Source: an uncultured archaeon
GTDB lineage: Archaea > Asgardarchaeota > Lokiarchaeia > Sigyniarchaeales > SOKP01
Length of the DNA stretch: 19,689 bases
Direction of reading: 5' to 3'
Assembly: GCA_964493715.1 (NCBI GenBank)
Contig: CAZBPC010000065.1
Span: 1 to 19,689, forward strand
Numbering within the stretch: the stretch's first letter is position 1; every line of letters begins with the position of its first letter. The notes beneath the pieces were generated by a model that saw only the letters and a list, made by a program, of their open reading frames with translations, ran no database searches and was not told the origin of the DNA. This document shows, one piece after another, positions 1 through 19,689 of this stretch. The translations under genes were made by a program, and so were the position numbers.

Positions 1-1260
1 GCTGTTGTTGGTACTCCTTGTCAGATTCAAGCTTTAAGAAAACTCCAAAATCATCCTATCTTTGATTTTGAAGCTTTTGATTTAGTTTCATTCACAATAG
101 GTACGTTTTGCACTGGGACTTTTTATAACAAAGCTTTAACTGAGATATTTAAGGAAAATGGTCTTCAAAAAGAAGAAATTCAAAAAATTGAAACCGACCA
201 TAATAATTTCAAATTGAAAGTTATAACCAATTCAAAAACTCTAGAAATTCCATTAAATCATCTTTATGATAGGGCTATAAGAAAAGCTTGTTTTACATGT
301 TCTGACTATACTGCTTCTTTTGCTGATATATCTGTTGGAAATTTTGGAAGCGAAGAAGGTTGGGATACGTTCATAATAAGAACAGAGAAGGGTAAGCAAA
401 TATATGATTTAGCGGTTGATAAAGGAATTTTAGAATCAAAATCTCTTGATAAAGATAATGAGGAACTAATTTTAGACATCACCAGAGCTAAAACTGACTT
501 AGTAAGGATTGAGTCCATTACAGAACATTCACCGAAGATTAAGAGCTTTTGGGTAAGGAATCAAAGAATTGCTAAAGCATACAAACCCGGAATGTTTGTG
601 GTTCTCTGGGTTCCTGATATTGATTTCATGCCGATGTCCATTTCAAGAGTCGAAGGAAACCAAATAGAAATTACCGTCGAAAAGGTAGGAGAAGGTACGT
701 CCGCAATGTTCAATTTATCTAAAGGGGATTGTATTGGTATCAGGGGTCCATATGGAAATTCCTGGAATTATGAGGATGCAACAAACATACTTATTGTGGG
801 GGGAGGTATGGGGATTGCAGCAGTAACTAGCTTAATAGAACCATTAAAAACAAATAAGAAAAACGTGTTTGCAGCAATCGGGGCAAAGGATAATATATCA
901 CTAATTTTTGCAGATAGACTTATAGAACTAATCCCAAATACACTTTGTACAACAGATGATGGTTCTATTGGGAAAAAATGTTATGTAACTGATACAATTG
1001 AAGATATTATTAAGGAAAAGGAAATTGATCTTATCATAACATGTGGTCCCGAAGTGATGATGAAAAAAGTGTTGGATATTGCAGAATCACGTAAAATTCC
1101 TATTCAAGCAAGTTTAGAAAGAAAAATGAAGTGTGGAGTTGGATTATGTGGATCTTGTTGTGTAGGAAAGGATAACAATATCACAGTTTGTAAAGAAGGA
1201 CCAATTTTTACCTCTAAACAAATAAAGCAATTTCCCCAATTTGGAAATTATATTAAATAG
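1..1260 (+). CDS. Fusion of a coenzyme F420 hydrogenase/dehydrogenase beta-subunit C-terminal domain (FrhB/FdhB-C) and a PyrK-type FAD/NAD(P)/2Fe-2S electron-transfer domain; 5'-truncated by the window edge
   Basis: Frame 1 is open from base 1 (AVVGTPCQIQALRK...IGTFCTGTF), so the 214 start in the track is an artefact. FrhB-C motifs are GTPCQ, IGxFC and CxxCxDYTAxxADISVGxxGSxxGW. They are followed by PyrK/FNR motifs PGMF, PMSIS, RGPYGN, GGGMGIA, TDDGS, CGPEVMM and ERKMKCGVGLCGSC...VCKEGPIF. Confidence 0.85.
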   Translation, partial: AVVGTPCQIQALRKLQNHPIFDFEAFDLVSFTIGTFCTGTFYNKALTEIFKENGLQKEEIQKIETDHNNFKLKVITNSKTLEIPLNHLYDRAIRKACFTCSDYTASFADISVGNFGSEEGWDTFIIRTEKGKQIYDLAVDKGILESKSLDKDNEELILDITRAKTDLVRIESITEHSPKIKSFWVRNQRIAKAYKPGMFVVLWVPDIDFMPMSISRVEGNQIEITVEKVGEGTSAMFNLSKGDCIGIRGPYGNSWNYEDATNILIVGGGMGIAAVTSLIEPLKTNKKNVFAAIGAKDNISLIFADRLIELIPNTLCTTDDGSIGKKCYVTDTIEDIIKEKEIDLIITCGPEVMMKKVLDIAESRKIPIQASLERKMKCGVGLCGSCCVGKDNNITVCKEGPIFTSKQIKQFPQFGNYIK

Positions 1261-1364
1261 TTTTTCTCCTTTATTATTACATGCTTTAAATTAAATTGTT
1301 ATAGCAAGCAAGCATTTTAATTCTTTTAACTATTCTCTATCTAAATTTTTCTTTTGTATTTTTT

Positions 1365-2309
1365 ATGGATAATTACAACTTTAAGAAAGGGTTATTATAT
1401 AGCGTTATAGGGGCTTTTCTTATTGGATTACAGCCCGTTATTGCAAATTCTAGGCCTGCGAGTATTGATGCTTATATTTTTGGAGCAGTAACAGCTCTTT
1501 TTGAAGCTATTATATTTCTTCCCATTTATTTATTTGAGAGAAAAAAGTATAAATCTTTATTTAAAAATTCACAAGACAATGAAAAATATTATCTTTTACT
1601 TCATGGATGGAAAAAGAAAAGAAATCTGATTTTATTCATCATAATTGGAATCGGTTTTACATTTATTCCAGTATTTTTATATATTGGGTATGCATTAGCA
1701 GGTGCCATTAATAGCTCTCTTGCATCAAAATCTGAGATAATCTTTGCCTTAGTCTTTGGATATTTTGCTTTTAAAGAAAGAATTAATAAACTTCAAATAC
1801 TTTTTTTCTTTTTACTATTTTTTGGCTTGATATTAGCAGTAACTCAGGGCTCTTTTGATATACTTCACTTAAATTTGGGGATTATTATGATAATCTTCAC
1901 AGTAGTGTTATTTACATTTATTCATATTTTAACAAAAATTAGTTTAGATAAAAATGAGATTTTCTCTTCTCAAGTGGTATTTATTCGTAATATTTTCAGT
2001 GGAATTCTATTAATCTCAACATATTTCATCTTTTATCCCTTAGATAATTTAAATATCTTGTTAACCCCTATAAATTATGTTTATTTTACATTTATGAGTT
2101 TAGATTATGGATTTTCATTGTATACATGGTATAAAGCACTTACTTATTTCCAGATTGGTAAGACAACAATTGTGGGTTCATTGACACCAATAGTCACCGC
2201 TTTCTTCTCTTTTTTATTTTTAAACGGAATTTTTACAATTTATCATTTAATTGGTACAATTATCATTATTTTTGCAATTTTCTTAATTATACGAGAAAAG
2301 CCAGAATAA
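1365..2309 (+). CDS. EamA/DMT family transporter
   Basis: About 10 hydrophobic segments in two repeats. EamA-like motifs FGYFAFKERINK and LTPIVTAFFSFLFL...IYHLIG. Confidence 0.85.
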   Translation: MDNYNFKKGLLYSVIGAFLIGLQPVIANSRPASIDAYIFGAVTALFEAIIFLPIYLFERKKYKSLFKNSQDNEKYYLLLHGWKKKRNLILFIIIGIGFTFIPVFLYIGYALAGAINSSLASKSEIIFALVFGYFAFKERINKLQILFFFLLFFGLILAVTQGSFDILHLNLGIIMIIFTVVLFTFIHILTKISLDKNEIFSSQVVFIRNIFSGILLISTYFIFYPLDNLNILLTPINYVYFTFMSLDYGFSLYTWYKALTYFQIGKTTIVGSLTPIVTAFFSFLFLNGIFTIYHLIGTIIIIFAIFLIIREKPE

Positions 2310-2376
2310 GAGTCAAAATGATTATGACATGCATAAAAATAACGTTTTTATGCCTTATGGGTTTTTCTTTAATATA

Positions 2377-3330
2377 TTGGATAACACAAAAAAAGGTATC
2401 ATCTTTGGTATATTTGGGACTTTTTTGGTTGGGTTTCAGCCTATTATAGCAATATCACGCCCATCTGTTTTAGATGCACATCTTTTTGCTGCAATGACTT
2501 GTATAATCGAAGCTTTTATATTTCTTCCTTTGGTTCTTGGAGAAATCTATTTCCCAAAAGGGAAAAAGGATAACAATTTTAGGAGAAAAGAAAAAGTAAA
2601 GATAATTTTAAATAATTGGAAATCAAATTTTAAAACACTGATATTCATAGGGTTTATTTTTGGGCTTAATCAATTGCTATATTTCATTGGGTATGACTTT
2701 TCCGGAGCAATAAATGGCTCATTAACCCAGAAAACCACTGTTTTTTTTGGTTTAATCTTTGGTTATGCAATCTTAAAAGAGAAAGTGAATAGCCGCCAAA
2801 TTCTATTTTCAATAATTCTTTTTATAGGATTAATAATAGCAATTACTCAGGGGAAATTTTTTTCATTTGACTTGGATACTTTAGTTGGAGTGCTAATTTT
2901 ATTATTTATAACATGCTTATGGATGTATGGTCATACGATTACAAAACCCATTTTTAATAGAAGAGAAGCTACACCTACTCAGATGGTATTTTTACGTAAT
3001 TTATTAAGCGGGATTATTTTGATAGCAACATATTTCTTATTCTTCCCTTTCAGTAATTTATCTTTATTTTCAGCACCTTTAAATCAAATATATTTTGTAA
3101 GCATGGGTGTAGTTTATGGATTTGGACTCTTTTGTTGGTATAAAACACTTTCCTATTTAGATGTCTCAAAGGCAACAATTATATTTTCCCCTACACCTAT
3201 TGTCACAGCAATTTTTGCATATTTTCTACTTGGTAGAATATTTACGATTTTTCATTTAATCGGAACAATTATTGTTATTACTTCAATAATCATCATTTTA
3301 TTTAATAAGGATAAAGTTAAATCCACCTAA
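2377..3330 (+). CDS. EamA/DMT family transporter, paralog of the preceding gene
   Basis: Same architecture (GFQPIIAISRP vs GLQPVIANSRP; LKEKV; PTPIVTAIF). The in-frame TTG at 2377 (LDNTKKG) aligns with the MDNYNFKKG start of the paralog. ATG at 2329 or 2350 are alternative starts. Confidence 0.8.
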   Translation: MDNTKKGIIFGIFGTFLVGFQPIIAISRPSVLDAHLFAAMTCIIEAFIFLPLVLGEIYFPKGKKDNNFRRKEKVKIILNNWKSNFKTLIFIGFIFGLNQLLYFIGYDFSGAINGSLTQKTTVFFGLIFGYAILKEKVNSRQILFSIILFIGLIIAITQGKFFSFDLDTLVGVLILLFITCLWMYGHTITKPIFNRREATPTQMVFLRNLLSGIILIATYFLFFPFSNLSLFSAPLNQIYFVSMGVVYGFGLFCWYKTLSYLDVSKATIIFSPTPIVTAIFAYFLLGRIFTIFHLIGTIIVITSIIIILFNKDKVKST

Positions 3331-3417
3331 GTTTTAAATGACTCATTATTATTGAAAATATAGCAATTATTCACTAAATTATTAATCTAATTGAGCAAAA
3401 AGAGGTCTTAAAAAAGA

Positions 3418-4452
3418 ATGTTAAAAACGAATATTACTGAAATGTTTAATATAAAACACCCTATCTTTGCAGCACCAATGGGTCCTTTTTATACGAAGGA
3501 GTTAACTGTTGCGGTCTCTGAAGCAGGTGGTATGGGAGTTATAAGTCATACCAACCTTTTGGGGAAGGAGAGTTTTAAGGTTATGAAAGAGGATATGGAA
3601 TATGTAGTTGAACATACTGACAAACCATTTGGTTTTAATATTAGGACGGGTCGAATGCAATTTGATGCAAAAAAACTTTGTAGACAAATTCCAAAATTCA
3701 TTTTGGAGAATCAGAAAGTAAAGGAACAATGTGTTTATGCTTTAACAAGCGCGGGTTCTTCGAAAATGTTACCATTAAGCAAAAGTTTTCAAGCATTGAA
3801 GGAGAAGAGTGATATAAAACACTTTCATGTTGCTCCAGCAGCTTGGTTAGCTGATAAGTGTGTTGCATCGGGAGTTGATGGCATGGTGGTCACTGGAAGT
3901 GAAGGTGGTGGACATCAATCTTATGAAAAAACAGGCACGTTAGTGTTACTACAACAAGTATTAGAAAAACATCCTGATTTTCCTATCATTGCCTGTGGAG
4001 CTTTTGGAAATGGATATGGCCTAGCAGCAGCATTAGCAATGGGAGCAGGTGCTATTGCAATGGGTTCAAGGTTCATTGCTTCTCAAGAAAGTGAATTTCA
4101 TCAAAAATACAAGGATATTGTTCCCCCTGCAAACCCTCAAGATACTGTTTTGGTTACTGGCTTTTTGGGTCCTATTAGGTTATGGAAAAATGATTATGCT
4201 TTACACCACGGACTCATAGATAGTAAGGAGGAAAAAATGGCTGATGAAGATGGATTTACAATGGAAATGTTACTTGAAGATGGTAAGCATTATGAATCAG
4301 TATATTTAGAGGGGGACCTAAAAACTGGAGCGATACCTTTAGGTCAAAGTTGTGGATTAGTATATAGTTTAGAAAGAGTTCCAGATATAATAGATTCAAT
4401 TGTAAAAATTGCTAAAGAAAGACTTAAAAAAGCTTCTATAATCCTTCAATAA
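3418..4452 (+). CDS. Nitronate monooxygenase / FabK-like FMN-dependent enoyl reductase family protein
   Basis: Motifs LKTxITEMFNIKHPIxxAPMG, AVSEAGGMG, KPFGFN, GSEGGGH, AAALAMGA, MGSRFIASQES and GQSCGL. Confidence 0.88.
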   Translation: MLKTNITEMFNIKHPIFAAPMGPFYTKELTVAVSEAGGMGVISHTNLLGKESFKVMKEDMEYVVEHTDKPFGFNIRTGRMQFDAKKLCRQIPKFILENQKVKEQCVYALTSAGSSKMLPLSKSFQALKEKSDIKHFHVAPAAWLADKCVASGVDGMVVTGSEGGGHQSYEKTGTLVLLQQVLEKHPDFPIIACGAFGNGYGLAAALAMGAGAIAMGSRFIASQESEFHQKYKDIVPPANPQDTVLVTGFLGPIRLWKNDYALHHGLIDSKEEKMADEDGFTMEMLLEDGKHYESVYLEGDLKTGAIPLGQSCGLVYSLERVPDIIDSIVKIAKERLKKASIILQ

Positions 4453-14108: not shown

Positions 14109-14281
14109 CTTAGATCCGAAAATATTATAATTATTATATATTTAGTTTGGCATTTTATAAATGTAGTTTTAATCAGATTCCTGAAATTATATACTAAAAA
14201 TAAAATAGGAATAATTTAAAATAGAAGTTCTTTTATGTGAAGAAACTAGAGAAAAAATTCTTAAAAATTAATGTTTTAATT

Positions 14282-15103
14282 ATGGATTCAAATAGAAATA
14301 TCGAAGTCACGTGTCCAGTTTGTAAGATTATTAAAAAAATTAGCATTCCTCAGAAAATATTTGACCAAAAAAGATTTGGTACAATAAAAGTTCAAGTTCC
14401 TCAAGGAGGTGTTTGCCTAGATCATCAATTCATCGTATTTATAGATATAAAGGGCATCATCAGAGGTTATGAAAAAATAGATCTAGTAATGAAAACTCCA
14501 ACTGAAACAAAAAAGTTTTCTCTCTATGGATTCATTAAAATGTTTGGATTATACGGGTTATTTTCCTTAATTCATGCTAAGATTTTTAATTATCTATCAT
14601 ACGTTATCAAAGATGAGGGTACAGAAGATCAATCAGAAATTATCAATATGCTTGGAGATAGTTTGCTTCCCGAAAAATATCGAGGGATGAACTTTATTAC
14701 ATTTATTGAAGATAGAGATTATAATAAAATAAAGAAAGACAAAAATATTCTCATAATAGATAGTCAAAAGAATATATTACAAACGCCTTGGAAAACAAAA
14801 TTGAAATTCGAAGAAGAAATCATTAAAAATGCACTTAAAATCTCAAATGAAGATGAACAACGTATTTCTATTCAAAATGAAATCGCTAAATTTATAAAAG
14901 AGGCTGAAATCTCGAAAATTATTGCCGAGAAAGAAGTGATCTATGAAACAGAGCTTATAGAAAAACTCTCAAGAGAATTAATGATCCCAAAAGTAAATTA
15001 TTATCGAATTTCACTAATTAAAGAGTTTATAGAAAGAAGAATTTCTGCAAAATTAGCCCAAAGGATTAAAAACAAAGTACATGAATTCCTCAAATCAATA
15101 TAG
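14282..15103 (+). CDS. Hypothetical protein with an N-terminal Zn-ribbon-like domain
   Basis: CPVC...VCLDHQF...IRGYEKID followed by a charged helical region. ATG 14282 is preferred over GTG 14237, whose extension is very AT-rich and promoter-like. Confidence 0.65.
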   Translation: MDSNRNIEVTCPVCKIIKKISIPQKIFDQKRFGTIKVQVPQGGVCLDHQFIVFIDIKGIIRGYEKIDLVMKTPTETKKFSLYGFIKMFGLYGLFSLIHAKIFNYLSYVIKDEGTEDQSEIINMLGDSLLPEKYRGMNFITFIEDRDYNKIKKDKNILIIDSQKNILQTPWKTKLKFEEEIIKNALKISNEDEQRISIQNEIAKFIKEAEISKIIAEKEVIYETELIEKLSRELMIPKVNYYRISLIKEFIERRISAKLAQRIKNKVHEFLKSI

Positions 15104-15205: not shown

Positions 15206-16053
15206 ATGCCCGATTGGGGAATGCAAAATCGTTTATCAAGAATTATTAAACCAAAATCTGGACATTGTGTAATGCTAGCGGTGGATCATGGTTATTTTGG
15301 GAATGTCCCGGGACAACTTAAATGTTTTGGAGATCTTAATCCTCTTTTTGAACATGCCGATGCATTGATGCTCACTCGAGGAATGTTAAGGAGTTGCGTT
15401 TCTCCCGATAGTGATATTCCCATAGTTTTAAGAGTATCAGCAGGAGCAAGCATGCTTAAAGAACTTTCGAACGAAGAAATAAATGTAACCATCGAAGATT
15501 GTATAAGATTAAATGTTTCTGCAATTACTTGCTCAATTTTCGTAGGGAGTGAGTTTGAAAAGCAGAGTTTATTGAATTTATCCAAACTTGTGAATTGGGG
15601 TCAAGAATATGGAATTCCATCTTTAGCAGTGACCGCCGTTGGTAGAGAAATGGTTCGAGATTATCGATATTTAGGAATGGCGAGTCGAATGGCAGCAGAA
15701 ATGGGTGCTTCTTTTGTTAAGACTTACTATTGTGAAGATTTTGAAAATGTTACGAGTATTTGCCCCGTTCCAATTGTCATAGCAGGCGGAAATATAGATT
15801 TGAAAGCCAAATTTATTCCGAAAAAGATTCCCGAAAGGGATGCCCTGCAGATGGCAAGGAATGCAATTGATAAGGGAGCTGTCGGTGTAGATTACGATTA
15901 TTTTTCATAATCGCAAGCAAAAACATGGGAAGAAATATCTTCCAATCAGACAGCCCAATTGGAATGATCAAAGCTGTTAGGGCAATCGTTCATGAGAATG
16001 CAACGGTTAATGACGCATTTGAGATATACCAGAATGGTCCAAAAGGTTTATAA
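15206..16053 (+). CDS. lsrF: LsrF-like 3-hydroxy-5-phosphonooxypentane-2,4-dione thiolase (DhnA-type class I aldolase fold). Predicted spliced CDS join(15206..15792,15823..15890,15923..16053), 261 aa
   Basis: LsrF-like motifs [38 protein letters not shown], catalytic KTYY and [10 protein letters not shown]. The missing C-terminus ([42 protein letters not shown]) lies in another frame at 15925-16053. Confidence 0.88.
15793..15822 (+). other. Putative BHB-type (HBh') mRNA intron 1, 30 nt, in frame
   Basis: Central helix CGGA(15787-90)/TCCG(15817-20), bulge AA^T, 9-bp intron stem ATAGATTTG/CAAATTTAT with one G-U, and 3' site AA^A. Ligation gives GGC GGA AAA AAG ATT CCC (GGKKIP). Confidence 0.8.
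15891..15922 (+). other. Putative relaxed BHB-type mRNA intron 2, 32 nt, frameshifting and containing a stop codon
   Basis: Central helix GTGT(15885-88)/GCAA(15917-20) with 3 of 4 pairs, bulge AG^A, intron stem TTaCGATTAT/ATAATCGcAA, and 3' site AA^A. Ligation gives GTA GAC ATG GGA AGA (VDMGR). Confidence 0.75.
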
Positions 16054-16057
16054 CAAA

Positions 16058-16068
16058 TTTTTTTTTTT
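16058..16068 (+). terminator. Oligo-T terminator candidate for lsrF
   Basis: T11 run 4 nt after TAA 16053, which supports this stop as the real gene end. Confidence 0.55.
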
Positions 16069-16282
16069 ATTCTTATTCTATTGATTCGTTTTACGTTTTC
16101 TTACTAGACCCTTTAAAAAACTACTCTTCATAAAAATAAAGGTTTTTTCATCTAAAAGTAATGAATATTGGGGAGAAGAAATTATAATTTCAAGCAAGAA
16201 TTACTAAAATATGTATATTCGTACTAGTGCTTTATTCACTGAAGCAACACCAGTCTTATTTCCAATACAAATAATAACAAAA

Positions 16283-16873
16283 TTATAAAGATAGCGATGG
16301 TTTTTCCAATATGATCACTTCTTCGTTTCTACTTATTTTTTCAATGGTTTGGACATCCAAATTCTTTTTTATTTTACTTCTCAAATTGTAAGATCCTCCC
16401 GCTTCCCCAGCTTCGAATTGGAAAACCTCATTATCTCTGGTAAAAATAATAAATATAACTTTAACTATTGTTTTCAACCTATAGATTACCTTAATTTTCG
16501 TGATATTCTCTATTTTATTTTGCTCGATAACATAGTTTGGTTCATTGTTTTTATCTTGAATGATTTTGATTATACCGATTCTCTTATTTGAAACGAACTT
16601 GAGTAAATCATTTCGCCTTACTCTTGAATATTCTCTTAGATCAACGATAAGCAAAGCTAACATTATAATTTGAGTAATAAAACCAACGATTGACATAAAG
16701 TAAAGATGGGGATCCACCATAACAAAAAAGACCACAAATAAAATAAAAATAAATATCACAATCCCTTCTATTATATGATGAGATCTATACTTTGCCTCCT
16801 GTAGTTTCCAAAATATTGTTTCATCGTTTTCGATGATTTGATTCAATATTTTTTTATAATTCTTGCTTTTCAA
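16283..16873 (-). CDS. Small 2-TM membrane protein with a probable bacterial-PH-like C-terminal domain
   Basis: ENDETIFWK, two TM helices, then FVSNKRI and a beta-rich region. The TTG start overlaps the upstream stop (TTGA). Confidence 0.6.
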   Translation of the reverse strand: MKSKNYKKILNQIIENDETIFWKLQEAKYRSHHIIEGIVIFIFILFVVFFVMVDPHLYFMSIVGFITQIIMLALLIVDLREYSRVRRNDLLKFVSNKRIGIIKIIQDKNNEPNYVIEQNKIENITKIKVIYRLKTIVKVIFIIFTRDNEVFQFEAGEAGGSYNLRSKIKKNLDVQTIEKISRNEEVIILEKPSLSL

Positions 16874-17511
16874 TTTTTACTCCTCACATTATGATTTTTA
16901 GATAAAAATTTTCTATACGTTATCTCAATATGATTTTGCCTAAGCATCTTAAAGAGATCCTCATGATCAGAAATATGGCATAATTGAAAACTGTTGATCG
17001 CTAGGTCGAGACGCCGAAGAACTTTAATATCTGATTTCTTGAAATAATGACCTGTCCAATCCAAGTGTCCCACACGTTTAAAATCTGGAATAATTTCAAC
17101 ATTTACATTTTTTTTAAAAGACAACAATACTGGTCGAACGTCAACATATTTAATATCAGTATAATTCAATGAATAATATTCATTATATTCGTTCCCATCT
17201 ATTTTTTTAATTATTTTTTCATTGGTCACAAGATAGGAGGTGTGAGATTGCTCGAATAAGTTAGATAACGCTAAGAATATTCCAGACCCGGATACGCCCG
17301 GAAAAATGATAAAAATTAAGTCCAAGGTAATCGCAAGAAGAAATCCGATGTATGTATTAGGAATTGGTAAATATTGAAAGATTAATACATCTATAATAAC
17401 ACCAAAAATTAAGATGATTAATGATATAAAGAAGAGGAATTTTTGTGGCTGTAAACTTATGCTGGATTGCCAAAGAATTTCTTCATCCTTTTCTAATATT
17501 TCTGCAAACAT
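16870..17511 (-). CDS. Small 2-TM membrane protein with a probable bacterial-PH-like (bPH_2/YdbS-like) domain
   Basis: LEKDEEILWQS, two TM helices, then YLVTNEKII...LNYTDIKYVDV. Confidence 0.65.
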   Translation of the reverse strand: MFAEILEKDEEILWQSSISLQPQKFLFFISLIILIFGVIIDVLIFQYLPIPNTYIGFLLAITLDLIFIIFPGVSGSGIFLALSNLFEQSHTSYLVTNEKIIKKIDGNEYNEYYSLNYTDIKYVDVRPVLLSFKKNVNVEIIPDFKRVGHLDWTGHYFKKSDIKVLRRLDLAINSFQLCHISDHEDLFKMLRQNHIEITYRKFLSKNHNVRSKN

Positions 17512-17544
17512 AATTTTCGTTAAGTCAAAAGGATTGTCAATTTT

Positions 17545-17892
17545 GTACCTCGCTAATAGAATATATTAAATTAATACTTAAAAGAATGTCGCTCCAATTG
17601 CAAAAATTAATGAGATTAAACTAATTGATTCTATTCATAATTTTGCCCATTATTTAATAGGGATAAACATTATAATTAAAATTAAAAATATTTTGGATAT
17701 TTCATTACTGAAAGATAGACAAATTAATATGAATTCTTAAAAATCATTACTAATATAGGAGTTTTAATAATAATTAATCCAAGATCTACCCTAATTTTTA
17801 TAGTAGATTATGGATTACCCTTCTATGAGTAATTAGTTTTACTTAAATTCCTCTTCTACTTTTCTCGTCCAGTCTTTGTTGGTCATTTTCAT
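17545..17892 (-). pseudogene. Possible decayed small membrane-protein gene
   Basis: A gene-sized gap. The minus frame from ATG 17892 reads MKMTNKDWTRKVEEEFK* and later gives hydrophobic stretches (ISKIFLILIIMFIPIK*, SISLISLIFAIGATFF*) broken by many stops. Confidence 0.3.
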
Positions 17893-17966
17893 CTTAATAT
17901 ACCGATAAGCATAATTTAATATTATCATTGTAACTATGCAAAATATTACTATTCCATAAATCAGAT

Positions 17967-18512
17967 CTAATTGACTCGTTGAAAAATTACCTCATTTTTG
18001 TTTGTTATTAAGTTGAAACCCAGTAATCCTTTCAAGACTTTGATCAGCGATAGATATTCTTTAACACCTTCAAATTTAATGATTTCGCTTGTTTTATCAT
18101 GAAATCGAAATTCGAATCCATAAATCGTTCTCCTTATAACGACTTTTTGAATGGCTTTTACTTCGATTTTTTTAATTATTGAATCTTCAGTGTTATTTGG
18201 AACACTGCTTTTTATAAGTGTATTAGAATTATTATGGATGCTTATCATTACATTATTTAAAGATACAAAATACCTCCATTTAAACTTGTCTTTCAACAAA
18301 ATCCTATAGAGAAAATAATGCACAATCAATAGAAATAATATATTGAAAACATAAATCACGACAATAAATAGAGAAGCTCCAGGAACAAGTATCGATTTCC
18401 CAAAAACACTATTAAATCCAATTATAAGCAATGTAGCAATTAAGAATAAGGAAATACTGTCTATAATTGGTGCATGGTTCTTACCTTTCCATAATACATT
18501 ATCAAATTTCAT
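17967..18512 (-). CDS. Small 2-TM membrane protein, same architecture as its two downstream neighbours
   Basis: DNVLWKGK, two TM helices, then RYFVSLNNV and a beta-rich tail (IQKVVI...IKFEGVKE). Confidence 0.6.
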   Translation of the reverse strand: MKFDNVLWKGKNHAPIIDSISLFLIATLLIIGFNSVFGKSILVPGASLFIVVIYVFNILFLLIVHYFLYRILLKDKFKWRYFVSLNNVMISIHNNSNTLIKSSVPNNTEDSIIKKIEVKAIQKVVIRRTIYGFEFRFHDKTSEIIKFEGVKEYLSLIKVLKGLLGFNLITNKNEVIFQRVN

Positions 18513-18571
18513 AATTCGATTCTTCCCACTTTTTATAATTAATTGTTAAAAAAAAATAAATATTTAGGTAT

Positions 18572-19689
18572 TTAAAATATTTTTATTTGTCCAGTAACCA
18601 AATATTGTATATATGTTATCAATGTGAAAATACCAAATGCAAAGCACATCCCACTATAAGCATATAATATATATTTTATTATAGAAGGAGTTTTAGTTTT
18701 TCCACCTGTATTTTCAACTTGGGGTTTTCCATAAAGGAAATATGTCATTAGTACTACTATAGGCATCATCGCTCCAATAAGAATATCTATTGTAGTAGCA
18801 ATTTTTTTAATAACTTCATCAGATACCCATACAGAAATTATGGCAAGTATGATACAAAGAATTACTTCAAATATCACCAATAATGGTATTTTACTCAAAC
18901 CTATTTTGATTTGAGTGAATTTAAATGCCCCCTTTGTTGCAGCGAGTGAAAATAATAATCCAGATAGGCATAATATGATACCAAGCGCCAAATAAGCTGA
19001 AGAAGGATCTGAGAATTTCGCAAATAAATAATTGAAGTCTTTTGCTCCACCGTTGATTAAAGGAATTAAGGTACTAATAGCATTAATACTAAATGCAGCA
19101 CCTGATGCAATACCAGCAATCACTAAAAGGAAAGCAATCCAAGCTTTTGAACTATCTGTTCTAAATATATATCCCGAGGCACTGAGTAAAACTGCTGGTA
19201 TACCAGTGATGAAAAGATACGACATATAACCCATTGTTTCAAAACTTTCTGTATCAAAAGTATGCTGAGTTGAATTAGAACCAAACCCATTGATTAAATC
19301 TTGTTCTATCTCTGCATCATCCTCTTCAGATCCTAGAAGAATTGGGGATTCCTTTCTCTGAATCAATGTGTTATTTAATAATATTGTATCTTCTACATAT
19401 GGTAAGGTTAAATCAAAATAACTTTCGTATTTCCAGATAATCTTATTTTCCATTTTAAGTGAATGAGTAAAAAAGTTAGCATCGATGAAGAATAATCCAG
19501 AATTCAGAGTGCCTCCAAGGCATAAGGTTAATATCAAAAAGAAAGGGATCATCGTTAAGAAAGAAACCGTAATTGATACAATAGCTAATGCGAGTAATAC
19601 ATATGTTAAAACTAGAATCGCAGCGCGAACTAAAAGCCATGCTAAGTGTGCTAGCCACGAGAGTATTGTCATTCCTATTGATTGAGCAT
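18572..19689 (-). CDS. C-terminal part of a larger multi-pass hydrophobic hypothetical protein; 5'-truncated by the window edge
   Basis: The frame is open to the edge (…AQSIGMTILSWL). It encodes a long hydrophobic stretch, an acidic linker (SEEDDAEIEQD) and about six Gly/Ala-rich hydrophobic helices. Confidence 0.65.
   Translation of the reverse strand, partial: AQSIGMTILSWLAHLAWLLVRAAILVLTYVLLALAIVSITVSFLTMIPFFLILTLCLGGTLNSGLFFIDANFFTHSLKMENKIIWKYESYFDLTLPYVEDTILLNNTLIQRKESPILLGSEEDDAEIEQDLINGFGSNSTQHTFDTESFETMGYMSYLFITGIPAVLLSASGYIFRTDSSKAWIAFLLVIAGIASGAAFSINAISTLIPLINGGAKDFNYLFAKFSDPSSAYLALGIILCLSGLLFSLAATKGAFKFTQIKIGLSKIPLLVIFEVILCIILAIISVWVSDEVIKKIATTIDILIGAMMPIVVLMTYFLYGKPQVENTGGKTKTPSIIKYILYAYSGMCFAFGIFTLITYIQYLVTGQIKIF

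Follow-up and report, generated by a model that had tools for sequence, protein, structure and literature searches.

A Short Intron in an Aldolase Gene of Lokiarchaeial Asgard Archaea Is Probably Host-Spliced and the Leading Edge of a Mobile Cassette

Introduction

Archaeal rRNA genes have introns of the bulge-helix-bulge (BHB) type that encode LAGLIDADG endonucleases such as I-DmoI, with the endonuclease gene lying inside a long intron. Among protein genes, cbf5 has a pre-mRNA intron of this type, which Watanabe 2002 and Yoshinari 2006 reportedly treat. In Crenarchaeota, the cbf5 intron is spliced, as reported in Yokobori 2009 (PMC2738675). Here, we analyze a window of 19,689 nt, contig C65 (CAZBPC010000065.1) of the 3.68-Mb genome (31% G+C) of an uncultured archaeon of the Lokiarchaeia, hereafter G000. 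In this window, an aldolase gene of the LsrF/DhnA type (15206-16053, + strand) is interrupted at 15891-15922 by 32 nt, hereafter intron 2. Taken as a whole, the evidence is best explained by a relaxed BHB intron that is probably spliced by the host and that forms the upstream margin of a mobile cassette.

Intron 2 resembles the cbf5 intron, as described in PMC2738675, in being a short BHB-type intron of a protein gene, a predicted substrate of the tRNA-splicing endonuclease, and present or absent in a lineage-specific manner. It differs in its gene, which encodes an LsrF-type aldolase, in its host, a Lokiarchaeia-type Asgard archaeon, and in having a second intron 68 nt away. According to the same source, the cbf5 intron shows vertical descent with rare loss, whereas the aldolase intron appears together with a mobile endonuclease cassette and a recoded substitute exon. 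Splicing was reported for cbf5, whereas here it is predicted from comparison of genes.

For archaeal BHB introns in protein genes, a review from 2019 and a structure paper from 2025 cite, in the parts available, only three cbf5 papers. Papers on Asgard tRNA introns make no mention of mRNA introns in the parts covered. In this literature, as far as its available parts go, we found no report of Asgard mRNA BHB introns or of LAGLIDADG cassettes of the kind described below, and only cbf5 of Crenarchaeota is documented. A 2026 preprint on Asgard tRNA introns treats how introns arrive as the central open problem. A system in which an intron is moved by a separate gene is known from phages: in collaborative or trans homing, a free-standing endonuclease mobilizes an intron that lacks an endonuclease (PMC2790892).

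Results and Discussion

An Insert Interrupts a Conserved Aldolase Gene

The pieces of the gene on both sides of intron 2 match one protein family. The first open reading frame (ORF), 15206..15910 (234 aa), matches NCBIfam NF006081, the LsrF-type 3-hydroxy-5-phosphonooxypentane-2,4-dione thiolase family, with 308 bits (cut-off, 297) over profile positions 33-252; Pfam DeoC also matches exon 1. A 42-codon ORF in a different frame (15925-16053) matches NF006081 at positions 252-288. The profile thus runs on across the junction, with the first piece reaching position 252 and the second starting from it. An earlier note on this DNA had pointed out that retention of the insert brings a TAA into frame, and the first ORF indeed ends at this codon (15908-15910), since the 32 nt shift the frame. 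Excision of 15891-15922 gives back GAVGVDMGRNIFQ.

Orthologs from the same genus show the uninterrupted state. An aldolase ortholog was present in 37 of 41 genus genomes, and 35 full-length rows were aligned. Thirty rows lack the insert, being exactly 32 nt shorter, and read GGNGTNG/AYATGGG, GVDMGRN, with the slash at the site of the insert. Excision from the G000 gene restores this family sequence, in agreement with the earlier claim that the insert must be removed to reach the C-terminal MGRNIFQ part. The boundary of the insert is ambiguous by 1 nt (A/A) in the alignment, and the junction predicted earlier, G15890/A15923, fits the BHB rule. A contig from DNA run X4 spans 15755-16080 with both inserts present, and a contig from DNA run X3 covers 15870-16080 with zero differences. 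The insert is therefore not a one-off assembly error. Coordinates of the exons, introns, and related features are in table 1.

Table 1. Features of the interrupted aldolase gene and its downstream flank in the window
Feature	Position	Strand	Evidence
Exon 1 of LsrF/DhnA-type aldolase	15206..15792	+	NF006081, 308 bits; Pfam DeoC
Intron 1, 30 nt, in frame, stop-free	15793..15822	+	Alignment; layout computed
Exon 2, 68 nt between the introns	15823..15890	+	dS relative to G006
Intron 2, 32 nt, frameshifting, relaxed BHB (HBh')	15891..15922	+	Same site occupied in six other loci
Central-helix exon strand GUGU, partner GCAA at 15917-15920	15885..15888	+	Covariation
Intron hairpin h', 15892-15901 with 15907-15916, loop 15902-15906	15892..15916	+	Covariation
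Exon 3, substitute imported recoded tail, 42 codons and stop	15923..16053	+	Identity; dS; NCBIfam
Start of insertion of at least 7.3 kb that sister genomes lack	16054..19689		Synteny; resumes at C84:1-3624

Structure and Covariation of Intron 2

The central helix of intron 2 joins GUGU of exon 2 to GCAA of the intron through a G.A mismatch and U-A, G-C, and U.G pairs. It is flanked by a 5' bulge (A15889 G15890/A15891) and a 3' bulge (A15921 A15922/A15923). Within the intron, the inner stem has 9 of 10 positions paired and one A.C mismatch, and it is closed by a UUUUC loop. The sequence is as the earlier note had described it, including the GTGT/GCAA core, the bulges, the loop, and ATG 15925. 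Cut positions placed by the BHB rule reproduce the intron-less sequence, with bulges AG/A and AA/A (AC/A in the G042 type). Although h' has 9-10 bp, the outer exon-exon helix h amounts to just one pair, G-C or G.U. The motif is therefore of the relaxed HBh' form and departs from the strict hBHBh' form.

Six other loci have an insert at the same site. Four are in other genomes of the genus, 32 nt long in G042 and G051 and 30 nt long in G018 and G021, and two are on metagenome contigs L060 and L061; across carriers, the length is 30-32 nt. The 30-nt form is in frame with a stop at its fourth codon. In every carrier, the four intron bases just ahead of the last two are paired to four bases of the exon, a 3-nt bulge lies at each junction, and a hairpin of 9-10 bp makes up the remainder. 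All four pairs form in the six other loci, whereas three of four form in G000. The second pair of the central helix is C-G in four rows (including the G042 type), A-U in two (G018 type), and U-A in one (G000); on the exon side, this pair involves the synonymous third position of a Gly codon.

Compensatory change extends into the intron. In the hairpin, 3 of 10 pairs change on both sides across lineages, and across the whole structure, 4 of 15 pairs do so (seven distinct rows). In these rows, 94.2% of cells pair, versus 28-48% when partners are slid. The covariation score is 0.263, compared with 0.019-0.079 for slid controls, and none of 500 shuffles reaches the observed value, a control that kinship among rows inflates. 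We regard covariation as good but not overwhelming evidence for the predicted intron structure. For G000 alone, the fold of 81 nt is not significant (z = -1.25). The significance comes from the comparison, because the same site is filled in six other loci with compensatory changes.

Sequence next to the 3' splice site has its own pattern. Six of the seven carrier rows share the first 20 nt of exon 3 exactly, and G000 differs from them at one base. Right behind the site, 15928-15943 can form a local 6-bp hairpin (GGAAGA/UCUUCC), where noncarriers vary at synonymous sites.

Predicted Splicing and Its Machinery

We propose that in the pre-mRNA, GUGU of the exon would pair with GCAA of the intron, with the 3-nt bulges AG/A and AA/A flanking this helix and the 10-bp intron hairpin stacked on it. 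A heteromeric EndA would then cut both bulges, and RtcB would join G15890 to A15923. As structure and covariation suggest, ligation would yield an mRNA that encodes ...GAVGV-D-MGRNIFQ... and thus an active aldolase.

Genes for this machinery are present. Two EndA paralogs are encoded in G000 (C5:38084 and C58:18731 regions), and both of them contain an N and a C domain. By eye, one paralog shows a Tyr, His, Lys pattern, which we take to be the EndA triad, and the other is without the His. RtcB is encoded as well, by a gene that is itself split by a 29-nt insert. Asgard archaea have an (alpha-beta)2 EndA with an L1 loop and broad specificity that cleaves relaxed motifs, according to PMC5829648. 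The two paralogs of G000 may form an enzyme of this type, in line with the earlier statement that broad-specificity EndA types handle relaxed motifs.

The part of the gene behind the insert evolves as coding sequence. Between G051 and G018, which represent two cassette lineages, the ratio of nonsynonymous to synonymous substitution rates (omega) in exon 3 is 0.078 at a synonymous divergence (dS) of 0.76. Between carriers and their nearest noncarriers, omega is 0.02-0.09 at dS of at least 1. The lengths of the insert also bear on how it is overcome. The 32-nt form shifts the frame and the 30-nt form is in frame with a stop, so excision explains both, whereas frameshifting does not. By comparison among loci, the insert is a well-supported candidate for a spliced intron.

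The Intron Adjoins a Candidate Homing Endonuclease Gene

The distribution of intron 2 does not follow the relationships of its hosts. In the exon tree, the five genus carriers are in three places; starred branches force at least three state changes, and the best tree has four. The 5' part of the gene in carriers is closest to that of intron-less sisters (dS of 0.12-0.28), whereas their exon 3 is foreign (dS of at least 1). Exon 3 copies of the G042/G051 type and of the G018/G021 type are mutual nearest relatives.

Directly past the stop codon, G018 has an insert of 1.87 kb and G042 has an insert of 1.30 kb when compared with G021 and G051. Each insert is followed by a duplicated, native-type gene end of ∼72-80 nt. 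The two inserts encode homologous proteins of 576 aa (G018) and 398 aa (G042) that are 52% identical, and a gene of this family adjoins the intron-bearing aldolase gene in G018, G042, L060, and L061. Searches of Pfam, PHROGs, and, with single sequences, the PDB gave no clear match for the protein, and its family was placed only via a profile. A profile of 32 relatives matches I-DmoI chains with E values from 7e-7 to 4e-3 over both motifs, which by eye are WLGFLWAEV and LLGFFDGDG. Among these aligned relatives, 21 of 32 match Pfam LAGLIDADG_3 (PF14528) and two match PF00961.

The endonuclease gene and the intron occur together. All four endonuclease-bearing loci with a visible upstream gene carry the intron, two of the four having been found by the endonuclease query, and the gene is absent from all 29 intron-less loci for which the downstream flank is 934 nt or longer. 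The endonuclease gene is absent in G021 and G051, in which the tails are recombinants: substitute-type up to the stop codon in G051 or mid-tail in G021, and native-type beyond. Such tails are the expected remnant of a deletion of the endonuclease gene between two tail copies, and we read G021 and G051 as having lost the gene by recombination.

Intron 2 appears to be the upstream edge of a mobile cassette in which the intron and a recoded substitute 3' exon are followed by a free-standing gene for a LAGLIDADG homing endonuclease. Such a cassette would enter intron-less alleles by break repair and bring flanking exon sequence with it; in G000, the co-carried flank would include intron 1. Later, the endonuclease gene would be lost via recombination between the two tail copies. 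The remnant, an intron and a foreign tail, would be the state of G021 and G051 and, with extra cargo, of G000. By analogy to collaborative homing in phages, the intron may split the target of the endonuclease and thereby make carriers immune.

The cassette can be compared with two described systems. As in phage collaborative homing (PMC2790892), the endonuclease gene is beside and not inside an intron that is unable to move itself; flanking markers are co-converted there, and exon 3 is foreign in all carriers here. The intron site is the apparent break point in both, and in G000, the displaced tail starts there. The aldolase system differs in having an archaeal host and a 30-32-nt BHB mini-intron, predicted to be spliced by the host, instead of a self-splicing group I intron. 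Its cassette also supplies a substitute 3' exon that displaces the native one, and cleavage by its endonuclease is so far predicted. With I-DmoI-type rRNA introns, it shares the endonuclease family (profile E = 7e-7), the splicing chemistry, and archaeal hosts. It differs in its tiny, ORF-free intron and in the location of the endonuclease gene, which stands by itself behind a protein gene.

A variant of the cassette was found on metagenome contig L062. Here (1199-3390), the displaced aldolase tail is separated from the homing endonuclease gene by a gene for an AAA_15/AAA_21 ATPase and a DUF4435 gene, a pairing that also occurs in anti-phage systems. Because these genes are inside a cassette variant, the cassette seems able to acquire cargo. 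In a search for donors, viral contigs had no aldolase relative and only distant LAGLIDADG relatives.

The G000 Allele Is a Mosaic

Up to ∼15780, the G000 gene is 88-98% identical to those of its sisters G006, G022, and G001. From ∼15780 to the stop codon, identity is 73-84%, and the gene is no closer to its sisters than to any other genus member. Both introns lie within this imported part, which begins ∼110 nt upstream of intron 2. Relative to G006, dS is 0.28 in the 5' part and 1.43 in exon 2, which places exon 2 inside the imported tract; for exon 3, dS is 1.33 and omega is 0.083.

Synteny with the sisters ends at 16053-16085 and resumes on contig C84 at 3625. The sequence at C84:3625-3756 is a displaced native tail of the aldolase gene, comprising the last 44 codons and 91% identical to the sister tail. 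Native tail and flank together span C84:3625-5142, with the 1.5-kb flank at 86-90% identity. The displaced tail starts at GATATGGG, 1-2 nt from the intron-2 site. At least 7.3 kb of the insertion that separates the two tails is assembled (16054-19689 and C84:1-3624), and the end of C65 and start of C84 do not overlap. The insertion contains unknown ORFs and a PIN/MazE-type pair, and its assembled part has no recognizable homing endonuclease gene. We suggest that an intron-bearing donor served to repair a break at the intron site and that copying would have continued into donor DNA.

Genes on C84:1-3756 (L053) include one for a PIN-domain protein (2893-3324, - strand) and one for a MazE/AbrB-type antitoxin (3306-3548, - strand), both upstream of the displaced tail. 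A 653-aa ORF without a family and a membrane-like ORF are there too and are apparently part of the insertion.

Patchy distribution, a recoded exon, an adjacent LAGLIDADG gene, and a displaced tail point to a selfish-element origin of intron 2. Whether Asgard archaea harbor an undescribed mobile element, in which a free-standing LAGLIDADG endonuclease moves together with a recoded substitute exon and a BHB mini-intron of its own that the host splices, is in our judgment about evenly poised.

Evidence That Weighs Against Splicing and Homing

Several findings count against this explanation. Because the motif is relaxed, cleavage would hinge on a putative broad-specificity enzyme of the host, and the central helix of the G000 allele carries a G.A mismatch. 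Covariation rests on three lineages. Contigs from two RNA runs are only 90-95% alike to the locus and thus derive from relatives, and none reaches the intron-2 junction. One of these contigs runs on without intron 1, like relatives that have no intron 1 in their DNA, and is uninformative on splicing. Since ATG 15925 belongs to the native gene, the tail could also be translated on its own.

For the cassette, Pfam alone gives E = 0.015 for the G042 protein to LAGLIDADG_3 and no match for the G018 protein. The missing endonuclease gene in the assembled part of the G000 insertion also belongs here, and the only homolog in G000 is distant (C2:83884-84651, 36% identity). Finally, the duplicated tails do not share one right end. 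It lies at the intron site in G000 and ∼20 nt further in L062, whereas G018 and G042 have it 72-80 nt ahead of the gene end, so that these data do not fix the cleavage site.

Alternative Explanations

If the insert were retained, the gene could encode a split protein in which an N-terminal piece of 234 residues and 42 residues translated from ATG 15925 assemble. The ATG is 2 nt past the insert in all carriers, and purifying selection on the tail requires only that the tail be translated. This ATG, however, encodes the native Met of GVDMGRN and is in all noncarriers too, and is thus not a feature of the insert. It is not preceded by a Shine-Dalgarno-like purine run (AAGCAAAAAC), and the break would lie within the conserved GVDMGRN motif. 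A split protein also leaves unexplained why a covarying 4-bp helix joins exon and insert and why 3-nt bulges are exactly at the insert ends. We consider it unlikely.

The earlier note had proposed that splicing of intron 2 is an on/off switch. In such a scheme, splicing does occur, and the weak motif is cut slowly, which would tie aldolase output to the activity of EndA and RtcB. The note was right that the helix of intron 2 is weaker than that of intron 1 in G000 (3/4 vs. 4/4 pairs), and since rtcB of G000 is itself intron-bearing, splicing capacity could feed back. The weak helix is nonetheless particular to the G000 allele, with all four pairs formed in the six other loci, and 30 of 35 orthologs manage without the intron. 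Furthermore, the intron tracks a mobile cassette and neither clade nor habitat, and its origin looks selfish. The proposed switch thus finds no support and is improbable; the presence of the intron can be explained without regulation.

Carriers could also make no aldolase from this gene, with the insert being a scar of cassette insertion in a dead or dying gene. G000 has two paralogous DhnA-type aldolases (C121 and C23), so loss might be tolerated, and its allele has both a mismatched helix and a displaced original tail. Against this, none of the seven carrier loci has a stop or frameshift beyond the inserts, omega of exon 3 is as low as reported above, and the insert structure has been kept through compensatory changes. 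The same allele also occurs in protein cluster P0121, which has 23 member sequences on seven contigs. A dead gene is, on these grounds, rather improbable.

Passage of the ribosome over the insert, by programmed frameshifting or by bypassing of the T4 gene 60 type, was suggested by a hairpin and a stop codon shortly past the break and is very improbable. The earlier note had named frameshifting as a way in which its intron could be refuted, and the sequences do not bear this out. Matching take-off and landing codons are absent around the 32 nt in G000, and none are conserved in the seven rows. No slippery run is conserved either (a U-run in G000, AAUUAUUAU in G051, and a stop after three codons in G018). 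The 30-nt variant is in frame already, yet contains a stop, and frameshifting would leave ∼10 extra residues within GVDMGRN. A further, less favored reading of the insertion in G000 is integration by an integrase, the gene end having been copied in an attP. No integrase was seen in the incompletely assembled insertion, and the imported tract begins ∼110 nt upstream of the duplication.

Other Introns and Neighboring Genes

Intron 1 has a central helix with 4/4 pairs (CGGA/UCCG), bulges AA/U and AA/A, and a 9-bp stem with an AAAGC loop. Its boundaries are ambiguous over three positions within A-runs. It is found only in G000 (1 of 37 genus rows that cover the site). Differing 10-residue inserts occur at the codon of intron 1 in protein clusters P0125 and P0165, both times together with a truncation of the intron-2 type.

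The 29-nt insert in rtcB of G000 (C2:12134-12162, - strand; L049 ∼1472-1500) lies between Pfam positions 47 and 48. It has a perfect UUGG/CCAA helix, bulges AU/A and AG/A, and a 9-bp stem, and its excision gives back GGVGYDINCGVR. A match to RtcB is in 40 of 41 genus genomes and is split only in G000 and G001, the inserts of which differ at 1 of 29 bases. If this insert is an intron, the RtcB ligase required for splicing would itself require splicing. Near rtcB, we found neither a homing endonuclease gene nor a displaced rtcB head. In G001, a G000-like tract of ∼300 nt is just upstream of the rtcB intron. A 713-aa ORF (C2:12642-14783; L068:443-2584, - strand), in which only C2H2 zinc fingers are recognized, sits in a stretch of ∼2.3 kb between rtcB and its usual upstream neighbor; G022 is without this stretch.

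Truncated relatives of the aldolase are present in public protein sets. Among the best 120 relatives of the N-terminal piece, 12 clusters of at most 236 aa were inspected. Eleven stop 2-7 residues past GAVGVD, after varied residues that the inserts encode. The twelfth, P0223, leaves the frame at the intron-1 site.

In a genome-wide scan, BHB motifs had to have a 4-bp helix and a stem of at least 5 bp and to fuse two open frames, and a decoy helix served as the control. The scan is blind to in-frame introns and to mismatched ones such as intron 2. Decoys were as frequent as real helices (820 against 805; 861 against 850). Because real and decoy counts are equal at every stringency, the scan is unable to list further introns.

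ARAGORN found no tRNA gene within the window. It found only 27 tRNA genes in G000, a genome rated 100% complete, and 12 of these have introns; many tRNA genes of G000 are probably hidden by noncanonical introns. Upstream of the aldolase gene, a 288-aa ORF (14237-15103) without a Pfam or PHROGs match lies between it and an M28 peptidase gene. This ORF is missing in three sister genomes, where the gap between the peptidase and aldolase genes is ∼76 nt, and is present in G007 and G021.

Significance

The locus adds BHB-type introns in a metabolic gene and in rtcB of a Lokiarchaeial genus, with gain and loss of introns among species of one genus. One of these introns is physically tied to a homing endonuclease cassette, of which several stages of decay are visible. 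It also has a practical side: gene callers truncate such genes, and public protein sets already contain eleven truncated clusters.

The locus offers a testable mechanism for the arrival of introns and defined substrates for Asgard EndA. If the proposed element exists, cassette homing followed by loss of the endonuclease would be a concrete route by which introns of the tRNA type get into genes, and it would speak to the problem of intron arrival that the 2026 preprint treats as open. Moreover, in the prokaryotes most closely related to eukaryotes, ordinary mRNAs of metabolism would depend on enzymatic splicing.

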